Part shown: piece after piece, positions 16,996 to 20,465 of the stretch | How the letters are laid out: the number at the start of each line of letters is the position of its first letter | Numbering within the stretch: the first letter of the stretch is position 1 | Assembly: GCF_054482525.1 (NCBI RefSeq) | Contig: NZ_CM137006.1 | DNA length: 64,000 nucleotides | Reading direction: 5' to 3' (one strand) | Notes under the pieces: model-generated | The model's database searches: none | Told to the model about the DNA's origin: nothing | What the model saw: only the letters and a program-made list of their open reading frames with translations | Program-made: the position numbers and the translations under genes

Positions 16996-18453
16996 GTGTC
17001 TGAACTGTCTCAATTATCTCCACAGCCGCTGTGGGATATTTTTGCCAAAATCTGTTCTATTCCTCACCCGTCCTATCATGAAGAGCAACTCGCTGAATAC
17101 ATTGTTGGTTGGGCAAAAGAGAAAGGTTTCCATGTCGAACGCGATCAGGTAGGTAATATCCTGATTCGTAAACCTGCTACCGCAGGTATGGAAAATCGTA
17201 AACCGGTCGTCTTGCAGGCCCACCTCGATATGGTGCCGCAGAAAAATAACGACACCGTGCATGACTTCACTAAAGATCCTATCCAGCCTTATATTGATGG
17301 TGAATGGGTTAAAGCGCGCGGCACCACGCTGGGTGCGGATAACGGCATTGGTATGGCGTCTGCGCTGGCGGTTCTGGCTGACGAAAACGTGGTTCACGGC
17401 CCGCTGGAAGTGCTGCTGACCATGACCGAAGAAGCCGGTATGGACGGTGCTTTTGGCTTACAGAGCAACTGGTTGCAGGCTGATATTCTGATTAACACCG
17501 ACTCCGAAGAGGAAGGTGAAATCTACATGGGTTGCGCGGGGGGTATCGACTTCACCTCCAACCTGCATTTAGATCGTGAAGCGGTTCCAGCTGGTTTTGA
17601 AACCTTCAAGTTAACCTTAAAAGGTCTAAAAGGCGGTCACTCCGGCGGTGAAATCCACGTTGGCCTGGGTAATGCCAACAAACTGCTGGTGCGCTTCCTG
17701 GCGGGTCATGCGGAAGAGCTGGACCTGCGCCTTATCGATTTCAACGGTGGCACACTGCGTAACGCCATCCCGCGTGAAGCCTTTGCGACGATTGCTGTCG
17801 CAGCTGATAAAGTCGACGCACTGAAATCTCTGGTGAATACCTATCAGGAGATCCTGAAAAACGAGCTGGCAGAGAAAGAGAAAAATCTGGCATTGCTGCT
17901 GGACTCTGTTGCGAACGATAAAGCTGCCCTGATTGCGAAATCTCGCGATACCTTTATTCGTCTGCTGAACGCTACCCCGAACGGTGTGATCCGCAACTCC
18001 GACGTGGCAAAAGGTGTGGTCGAAACCTCCCTGAACGTCGGTGTGGTGACCATGACTGACAATAACGTAGAAATTCACTGCCTGATCCGTTCTCTGATCG
18101 ACAGCGGTAAAGACTACGTGGTGAGCATGCTGGATTCGCTGGGTAAACTGGCTGGCGCGAAAACCGAAGCGAAAGGCGCGTATCCAGGCTGGCAGCCGGA
18201 CGCTAATTCTCCGGTGATGCACCTGGTGCGTGAAACCTATCAGCGTCTGTTCAACAAGACGCCGAACATCCAGATTATCCACGCGGGCCTGGAATGTGGT
18301 CTGTTTAAAAAACCGTATCCGGAAATGGACATGGTTTCTATCGGGCCAACCATCACCGGTCCGCACTCTCCGGATGAGCAGGTTCATATCGAAAGCGTTG
18401 GTCATTACTGGACACTGCTGACTGAACTGCTGAAAGAAATTCCGGCGAAGTAA
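16996..18453 (+). CDS. pepD: cytosol non-specific dipeptidase (aminoacyl-histidine dipeptidase) PepD
   Basis: 485 aa, GTG start; translation matches PepD (MSELSQLSPQPLWDIFAKICSIPHPSYHEEQLAEYIVGW...). Confidence 0.95.
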   Translation: MSELSQLSPQPLWDIFAKICSIPHPSYHEEQLAEYIVGWAKEKGFHVERDQVGNILIRKPATAGMENRKPVVLQAHLDMVPQKNNDTVHDFTKDPIQPYIDGEWVKARGTTLGADNGIGMASALAVLADENVVHGPLEVLLTMTEEAGMDGAFGLQSNWLQADILINTDSEEEGEIYMGCAGGIDFTSNLHLDREAVPAGFETFKLTLKGLKGGHSGGEIHVGLGNANKLLVRFLAGHAEELDLRLIDFNGGTLRNAIPREAFATIAVAADKVDALKSLVNTYQEILKNELAEKEKNLALLLDSVANDKAALIAKSRDTFIRLLNATPNGVIRNSDVAKGVVETSLNVGVVTMTDNNVEIHCLIRSLIDSGKDYVVSMLDSLGKLAGAKTEAKGAYPGWQPDANSPVMHLVRETYQRLFNKTPNIQIIHAGLECGLFKKPYPEMDMVSIGPTITGPHSPDEQVHIESVGHYWTLLTELLKEIPAK

Positions 18454-18465
18454 TTATTTGATTTG

Positions 18466-18500
18466 CTGCCGGATGGCGTTTAATCGCCTTCCGGCAGTTT
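18466..18500 (+). terminator. GC-rich imperfect hairpin followed by TTT downstream of pepD
   Basis: ctgccggatggcg ... cgccttccggcag inverted repeat (one mismatch) then tttcat, read directly. Confidence 0.45.
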
Positions 18501-18509
18501 CATCCTTCA

Positions 18510-18898
18510 TTATCCTTCGATAAAAGCCATCCCTGTAAATGTCCGTCGCGGGTTGCCACGTTCAATTTGATGATGGAACATTCGCCACTGCGATTTCAGC
18601 GCCGCGCTATTTTCCTGTTGCTGTTGTTCCAGCTTCCAGGCAATCAGCAATCGCGCCAGCCGCTTGTTAGCATGCCCAGAAACCAGTTTTTGCGCCCATG
18701 ATGAGGCCGATACGGACTCGGACAAATCCACTGAATAGTGCCGCACCAACTTTCGCTTAATGCCCATGCGTTATCGCCATCCAGAGAAATCAGCGCCGAA
18801 CGCAGCGTGTCAGAGTAGCGGCCCGTTTCTGTTTCCAGCACCGTTACCGCGACGTCTTGCCGGGTAAAAACGGCCTGCGGAGAAGAACGCTGCGCCAA
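18510..18898 (-). pseudogene. prfH: peptide chain release factor H homologue remnant, split across two frames
   Basis: Two overlapping minus-strand ORFs (18510..18767 and 18644..18898) carry release-factor-like segments in different frames. Boundaries approximate. Confidence 0.45.
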
Positions 18899-19076
18899 TC
18901 GGGTAGCCGCGTCCGGGGTGTAAATCTGGCATCCCTACTACGCGCTGCATGTTGGGTAAATTTGCCGTGGTGTGTAATTGTTGGATCGCTAAACTCTCGA
19001 TCCACAGGCCATCAGATGCGATGGTAAATACCGCATCGGATAAGGGACGAATAGATTTGCCCATGTACCATCCCAT
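18810..19076 (-). pseudogene. ykfJ: RtcB-like RNA ligase N-terminal fragment (ykfJ-like remnant)
   Basis: 88 aa ORF containing an RtcB-type [18 protein letters not shown] motif; far too short for a full RtcB. Boundaries approximate. Confidence 0.4.
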
Positions 19077-19308
19077 TTATACTCGTCATACTTCAAGTTG
19101 CATGTACTGCGACTCGAATTATTTAGAGTATATAAATATAAAAATCAGGAAATGGCAGACGAATCCAGGGCAAGAAAAAAGAATTAATCCTGGAAAGGTC
19201 TGCAAAGAGTCATTGATAAAGGATTTGTCATGATTTACCTCCTTGCAGTTTGTGGAATAAGAAAACGCGCACATACCAGGCGGGTGTTATTTTCATTGCA
19301 AGCTGAAT

Positions 19309-19761
19309 TTAATGTTGCGGTTTATATCGCATAGAAAAATTAGTAAACCACGCTCCCCTGCATTCAACGCGCTGCTGCTTAACTGTCTGAAAACCATAAC
19401 GTTCAAAAAAGGGTTTTGCGGTTATGCTTGCGTCCACCGTAAGTTCGGATTCAGACTTAATCAAAGGTTTTAACAAAGCGCTGGCAACCCCACGGCGGGT
19501 GTATTCAGGGTCAACAAATAACATATCGATATAGTGTTCAATGCGGGAAATAAAACCAACCGGTTGTGCATTAATGATCGCAACCCATACTTGTGATTTC
19601 GCGAGTTTCTCCTTCCAGCGAGATTCGTCAATCTGCGCCCAGGCGGCAATTTGTTGTGGTGAATAATGCTGACTGGCGGTCATCGTAACCGCTCTAAGGA
19701 AAATAGCGCATAGTTGCTGAAAATCGCCAGGCTGATAGTTTCTTATTTGTATGTTATTCAT
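19309..19761 (-). CDS. yafP: GNAT-family acetyltransferase YafP
   Basis: 150 aa translation matches YafP; last gene of the dinB-yafNOP operon. Confidence 0.9.
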   Translation of the reverse strand: MNNIQIRNYQPGDFQQLCAIFLRAVTMTASQHYSPQQIAAWAQIDESRWKEKLAKSQVWVAIINAQPVGFISRIEHYIDMLFVDPEYTRRGVASALLKPLIKSESELTVDASITAKPFFERYGFQTVKQQRVECRGAWFTNFSMRYKPQH

Positions 19762-19770
19762 AATATAAAT

Positions 19771-20169
19771 TCAAAAACGCATGCGAAACGCTTCTGCCAT
19801 TTTCCCAATTTTATGCATTTGGTTGTTATCTCGAGCCAGTTTATGAGGTTCAGGTTTCAGAATGGCAATGAGCAACCATGCTTGCTCATCAAACGCACCC
19901 TGACAATATACCAAATGCGCTTCGTCATTCGTTCTGCTGAATTGGCGCAACTGTGGCGGAAATGGATTATTCACATTTGCCAGATGAATATGAGCAACTC
20001 GCTCAAATTTGATTAATGGCCAGGTAAACGAGTCGTCGTAGAGTGCATCGCGACCAAATATATCTGGCAAAACACCGTCACGCTTATAGGAAATAAAATC
20101 CGCCGTTAACGCATCAAGTTCCTCTGCTGTAAGTTGCAGGCAAATAAGTTTTGTTTTGAATACCCGCAT
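19771..20169 (-). CDS. yafO: YafO toxin (ribosome-dependent mRNA interferase)
   Basis: 132 aa translation matches YafO; adjacent to yafN. Confidence 0.9.
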   Translation of the reverse strand: MRVFKTKLICLQLTAEELDALTADFISYKRDGVLPDIFGRDALYDDSFTWPLIKFERVAHIHLANVNNPFPPQLRQFSRTNDEAHLVYCQGAFDEQAWLLIAILKPEPHKLARDNNQMHKIGKMAEAFRMRF

Positions 20170-20171
20170 CC

Positions 20172-20465
20172 TTATTCCTTAAAGTCATTGAAATCATCAT
20201 CCGTCATATCATTAAGATATTGTTCAGCGCGGCGTGTAATTTCCTCTAATCTTGCGGCACTCGGACGGAAGCGCGCCTTAACCAGTTTTTTCTCCTCTTG
20301 TTCAGCAAGCATGTCCATTAACGCTTCGAATGCGCTGGCACTTAAGAGATATCCTGCGGGGCGATTATTAGAAAGAACCGCAACTGGTTGATCAATAAAG
20401 TATTTAGCTGGGTTTTTACGTAACTCAGTGATATTGACCGATTTTTCAGCGAGAATTCGATGCAT
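20172..20465 (-). CDS. yafN: YafN antitoxin
   Basis: 97 aa translation matches YafN (MHRILAEKSVNITELRKNPAKYF...). Confidence 0.9.
   Translation of the reverse strand: MHRILAEKSVNITELRKNPAKYFIDQPVAVLSNNRPAGYLLSASAFEALMDMLAEQEEKKLVKARFRPSAARLEEITRRAEQYLNDMTDDDFNDFKE

Follow-up and report, generated by a model that had tools for sequence, protein, structure and literature searches.

Gene order and annotation of the locus

The window, by which we mean the whole stretch of 64,000 nucleotides analysed (RefSeq assembly GCF_054482525.1, contig NZ_CM137006.1), contains the genes gpt (minus strand), pepD (plus strand, 16996-18453), the remnant of an rtcB-prfH pair (minus strand), yafP (minus strand, 19309-19761), yafO, yafN and dinB, in that order. 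The remnant pair occupies 18510-19076 between pepD and yafP, with the prfH stop codon at 18510-18512 and the upstream ATG of an 88-aa ORF at 19076. A sequence-only reading had placed here a degraded rtcB-prfH pair, consisting of a short RtcB-like N-terminal fragment followed by release-factor-H-like sequence split over two frames. All of these pieces were found on the minus strand, with similarities far beyond chance, and they are homologous to, and syntenic with, the intact operon of E. coli W. In E. coli W, a gene for a 379-aa RtcB family protein lies between yafP and pepD, its end overlapping the start of a 204-aa prfH that forms one unbroken ORF of 204 codons. A tblastn search with the intact E. 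coli W proteins located three pieces only, and no further rtcB2 or prfH copy, in the 64-kb window.

Strain 1190 of E. coli (NZ_CP023386) matched a 921-bp query (18400-19320) at 100% identity, and the query found a match in 5,418 of 5,426 complete E. coli genomes. RefSeq (PGAP) labels this region of strain 1190 as a pseudogene of peptide chain release factor H ("frameshifted; incomplete; missing N-terminus") and, over the span corresponding to the rtcB remnant (rtcB'), as an incomplete pseudogene of an "RNA ligase RtcB family protein". Located between dinB and yafP at 19771-20465, the yafN-yafO toxin-antitoxin pair occurs in the window, in strain 1190 and in K-12, but is missing from E. coli W and APEC O78, whose yafP and dinB overlap directly. 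Between the convergent pepD and prfH remnant (prfH'), positions 18454-18509 hold a GC-rich inverted repeat, CTGCCGGATGGCG...CGCCTTCCGGCAG, which looks like a shared bidirectional terminator and was not reported by a simple terminator scan.

The rtcB2 remnant

The first piece, of the ykfJ type, comprises RtcB2 codons 1-69 (18858-19064, minus strand), as delimited by NCBIfam, tblastn and the RefSeq annotation. It lies within the 88-aa ORF 18810-19076, which includes the 14-residue motif singled out in the sequence-only reading and has an in-frame upstream ATG at 19076, codons being counted here from the ATG at 19064. Homology to the RtcB2 family was evident from matches to NCBIfam NF007153 (positions 1-69 of 379, E 3.1e-30), TIGR03073 "release_rtcB" (E 2.7e-28) and, weakly, the Pfam RtcB family PF01139 (positions 1-38 of 426, E 3.6e-5), and from 94% identity to residues 1-69 of E. 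coli W RtcB2 in tblastn. None of this amounts to a full-length match: the NF007153 score was 105.4 bits against a curated cutoff of 407, and the PF01139 score, 23.6 bits, fell below the cutoff of 27. The allele lacks 310 of the 379 RtcB2 residues. Beyond codon 69, a three-frame translation showed that the ORF continues into a tail of 15 residues (18810-18857, minus strand), which represents prfH DNA translated out of frame, since the length of the deletion that created the junction, 1027 bp, is not a multiple of three (3 x 342 + 1); reading stops 15 codons past the junction, at 18810.

Within rtcB', four substitutions are clustered in the 7 bp from 18873 to 18879 (sense CTCCGCAGGCC versus CTCTGTTGGTC), changing RtcB' Val64 to Ala. 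Among five haplotypes compared, this cluster was found in the window alone. Such a pattern is typical of an unconstrained pseudogene or of a small conversion tract.

The prfH remnant

The prfH sequence is retained as two fragments in different reading frames. Fragment A (18676-18857, minus strand; RQDVAV...NWFLG, within ORF 18644-18898) corresponds to a portion of the decoding-side domain, from PrfH residue 33 (partial) through residue 94, and has no start codon of its own; its extent was fixed by TIGR03072 and by codon mapping against E. coli W prfH. Fragment B (18510-18671, minus strand; HANKRL...FIEG*, within ORF 18510-18767) corresponds to residues 152-204 and the TAA stop, as determined with TIGR03072 and tblastn, and shows 95% identity to residues 149-204 of E. 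coli W PrfH. Both belong to the PrfH (RF-H) family, matching TIGR03072 at positions 32-93 of 200 (E 5.5e-26) and 150-200 of 200 (E 8.8e-15), respectively, so that the earlier description of a release-factor-H-like sequence in two frames was borne out. Positions 1-31 and 94-149 of the model are missing from the remnant, and the two fragments reached 91.3 and 54.8 bits where the cutoff is 166.65, with no single ORF of about 200 aa exceeding it. Pfam gave no match to the translations of the two ORFs, since out-of-frame sequence surrounds the short homologous parts, which NCBIfam recognised once the fragments had been trimmed.

Two deletions relative to the intact operon

The alignment to an intact locus that had been proposed as a check was carried out by BLAST and junction comparison, with the window and the K-12-like strain 4FA (which has K-12 coordinates) set against E. 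coli W. Two deletions and no others emerged, one of 1027 bp and one of 169 bp; the latter accounts for the two prfH frames.

Deletion 1 has its junction at 18857-18864 on the minus strand, with the break at 18858/18857, as judged from the junction sequences of the window, the K-12-like strain and E. coli W. The breakpoint lies inside an imperfect 7-bp microhomology, of which the left copy in the intact allele is TCCGGCA and the right copy CCCGACA, while the window has CCCGGCA (sense strand). The deletion takes out RtcB2 residues 70-379, the stop/start overlap and PrfH residues 1-32. Since the rtcB stop codon, the prfH start codon and their overlap were all in the 1027 bp, the window no longer has a two-gene operon with overlapping stop and start codons and keeps only the gene order and synteny of that layout. 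Direct inspection showed the same junction position in the K-12-like, APEC O78 and XD35 alleles, of which an exact-string test for the junction passed over APEC O78 and XD35 owing to SNPs in the microhomology box. The box (18858-18864) is indeed polymorphic among deletion alleles: K-12 shares CCCGGCA with the window, APEC O78 has TCCGGCA and XD35 has CCCGACA. Each variant base is that of one or the other parental copy in the intact allele. This polymorphism could result from later SNPs, from heteroduplex resolution or from two or more separate deletions at this repeat.

Deletion 2 is marked by a single remaining GCAT at 18672-18675 (minus strand), located from the junction sequences and codon arithmetic; the intact and K-12 alleles carry two direct copies of GCAT 169 bp apart. 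It takes out PrfH residues 95-151, including the GGQ at 120-122, and shifts the frame because 169 = 3 x 56 + 1. K-12 does not have this deletion, which we observed only on the background of deletion 1 in three double-deleted alleles, those of the window, the 100% identical strain 1190 and APEC O78.

These junctions suggest a two-step path of decay. In the first step, the 1027-bp deletion would have arisen at the imperfect 7-bp microhomology, joining RtcB2 codon 69 to PrfH codon 33 in a different frame; in the second, a later 169-bp deletion between the two GCAT tetranucleotides would have cost PrfH its GGQ peptidyl-hydrolase motif and changed the reading frame. The parts left at the end of such a path would be able neither to ligate RNA nor to hydrolyse peptidyl-tRNA. 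Both the order of the deletions and a microhomology-mediated mechanism are what we infer from the junctions and from the alleles compared.

Relation to known alleles

The window resembles the ykfJ/prfH pseudogene pair of K-12 (b0235/b0236; Pel et al. 1992; Baranov et al. 2006, PMC1586002) in having the site order yafP - rtcB' - prfH' - pepD, the same 1027-bp deletion and junction, the same 69 RtcB codons and the same out-of-frame rtcB' tail. It differs from K-12 in having the extra 169-bp deletion (loss of PrfH residues 95-151 with GGQ, and a shifted frame), in lacking a 72-bp ERIC core upstream and in about 2.3% substitutions. A deletion of about 1000 nt in K-12 and O157:H7 was described by Baranov et al. 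(2006; PMC1586002) and is deletion 1 of the present work; it was also noted by Tian et al. (2022; PMC9304027). The pseudogene pair is already known and annotated, and the 169-bp deletion, itself common and flagged by PGAP, is the sole increment over K-12. The sequence-only reading was silent both on the identity with the K-12 ykfJ/prfH locus (PMC1586002) and on the 169-bp deletion as the one step beyond the K-12 state.

Compared with the intact RtcB2-PrfH module of E. coli ATCC 25922, CFT073 and W, the window locus is orthologous and syntenic, and its fragments share about 94-95% protein identity with those of W, but it lacks PrfH residues 1-32 and 95-151, the prfH start codon and translational coupling. 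As for the other double-deleted alleles, that of strain 1190 (NZ_CP023386) showed no difference from the window over the 921 bp, whereas that of APEC O78 (NC_020163) has the 72-bp ERIC core and lacks yafN-yafO.

Frequency of the deletions in E. coli

The frequency of each deletion was assessed in 5,426 complete E. coli genomes, a set biased to laboratory and clinical strains. The 1027-bp segment was present, at a coverage of at least 80%, in 2,675 of these genomes, while the 921-bp query was covered in one place, as is possible only with deletion 1, in 2,672. A 44-nt probe for the junction of deletion 2, of which either flank alone is too short to seed a match, matched 658 genomes, and 670 of the 5,426 had no match whatever to the 169-bp segment. 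Alleles of intact length thus make up about 49%, alleles with the 1027-bp deletion only about 37%, and alleles with both deletions about 12%, or about one in eight, the nesting having been checked on examples. These counts amount to a rapid survey of a defence system that is polymorphic for presence and absence.

Probable loss of function and alternative explanations

The role of the intact pair in ribosome/RNA repair, which the sequence-only reading had given as thought to operate in other bacteria, has been established experimentally (Tian et al. 2022, PMC9304027; Maviza et al. 2022, PMC9223846). In strains with the intact module, ribosomes with 16S rRNA cleaved between A1493 and G1494 receive PrfH in their A site; its peptide release activity is limited to ribosomes cleaved by colicin E3 or CdiA-CT, and once the peptide is released RtcB2 reseals the 16S rRNA of the freed 30S subunit (PMC9304027). 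The mutations used to inactivate the two proteins were RtcB2 H294N and PrfH Q122E (PMC9304027). The codons for both residues are missing here: in the E. coli W proteins, position 294 of RtcB2 is a histidine within the lost segment 70-379, and position 122 of PrfH is the glutamine of the GGQ inside the 169-bp deletion. Lacking RtcB2 His294, the GGQ, the prfH start codon and translational coupling, the window allele cannot work like the intact module. Release of peptides by PrfH' on ribosomes cleaved between A1493 and G1494 is predicted to be negative, since GGQ is absent.

Strain BW25113, which carries deletion 1 only, is sensitive to colicin E3 unless complemented with intact genes, and knockouts of its truncated operon had no colicin E3 phenotype in the assays done (PMC9223846). 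The window allele is more degraded than that of BW25113, and a non-functional relic is therefore the best-supported reading. The locus also has the features of a unitary pseudogene: it is syntenic with the intact operon of E. coli W, it carries two deletions and a frameshift, and it has lost the start codon as well as catalytic residues. We consider it very probable, at roughly 0.95, that the E. coli rtcB2-prfH ribosome-repair operon survives at 18510-19076 only as a twice-deleted relic without function. The strain is accordingly predicted, from its sequence, to be without RtcB2-PrfH defence against colicin E3 and CdiA-CT ribotoxins, and would be sensitive to colicin E3 like K-12. The locus offers a textbook case of stepwise gene decay where the function was worked out in 2022, and is of little importance in itself.

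The near-even split between intact and deleted alleles may conceivably reflect balancing or antagonistic selection rather than neutral loss, for example if RtcB2-PrfH carried a cost when colicin E3-type toxins are absent; alternatively, the 88-aa RtcB' peptide might have a residual role. We regard either as very unlikely. More doubtful still is the proposal that the remnant has acquired a new function, either as a YkfJ-like peptide of 88 aa (RtcB residues 1-69 plus the novel tail of 15 aa) or as an RNA of the locus under selection. The 88-aa rtcB' ORF is open in the window and in K-12-type alleles and kept in many strains, and might therefore yield a small product, and the remnant has been retained, not wholly lost, in about half of E. 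coli genomes. Codon changes in rtcB', however, are about equally nonsynonymous and synonymous, being 3 and 3 relative to K-12 and 4 and 6 relative to W, compared with 2 and 38 in the neighbouring pepD relative to K-12; small as these counts are, constraint on rtcB' looks relaxed. In addition, decay continues, with the second deletion in 12% of genomes and the four-substitution cluster at 18873-18879, and the K-12 version, when expressed, went to inclusion bodies according to a reviewer of PMC1586002; the BW25113 knockouts, as noted above, were without phenotype. The promoter scan found no sigma-70-like promoter in 18380-19330, and no Rfam family passed its threshold in the remnant, the matches at E<=1 being a chance snoRNA match and a sub-threshold isrH match upstream. 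The remnant probably has no residual function. The terminator scan of 18380-19330 gave two terminator-like matches, no more than in shuffled sequences.

Another way to account for the two prfH frames would be programmed ribosomal frameshifting as in prfB (RF2), by which a full PrfH would still be made. PrfH is a paralogue of RF2 (TIGR00020 match, E 3.4e-26), and a +1 frameshift is established in RF2 expression (see also PMC1586002). The alignment nevertheless refutes this explanation, which we hold to be extremely unlikely: the change of frame coincides exactly with the 169-bp deletion relative to the intact and K-12 alleles, with loss of GGQ, the 32 N-terminal codons and start codon of prfH are gone, and prfH of E. 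coli W is uninterrupted. Least credible of all is a sequencing or assembly artefact of one genome. Single-genome frameshifts often are homopolymer errors, but the lesion here is a clean 169-bp deletion and not a 1-nt indel, and the population data refute an artefact: 658 independent complete genomes share the exact junction, and the 169-bp segment has no match at all in 670. The twice-deleted relic thus remains the preferred reading of the locus.

The repeat upstream of rtcB'

Just upstream of the rtcB' start, alignment revealed a short-form ERIC/IRU-like repeat (19078-19132, minus strand). A partial match to the Rfam family isrH, a Salmonella Hfq-binding sRNA, was found at 19076-19142 on the minus strand (model positions 151-218 of 280, E 2.6e-5), its score of 26.8 bits lying below the gathering threshold of 45; since it overlaps the ERIC-like repeat, this match probably represents a shared repeat and not an sRNA gene. 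In K-12, K-12-like strains and APEC O78, the extra 72-bp ERIC core is located between the positions corresponding to 19114 and 19115, whereas the window, E. coli W and XD35 are without it. The 72-bp insert matches the ERIC1R and ERIC2 primer sequences at 21 of 22 positions each. The two deletion junctions, together with the long or short form of this repeat, provide easy markers for the typing of E. coli lineages. Alleles with the 1027-bp deletion show every one of the four possible pairings of ERIC core (present or absent) and 169-bp deletion (present or absent), which implies either recombination inside a stretch of about 450 bp or that the core has been gained or lost repeatedly.
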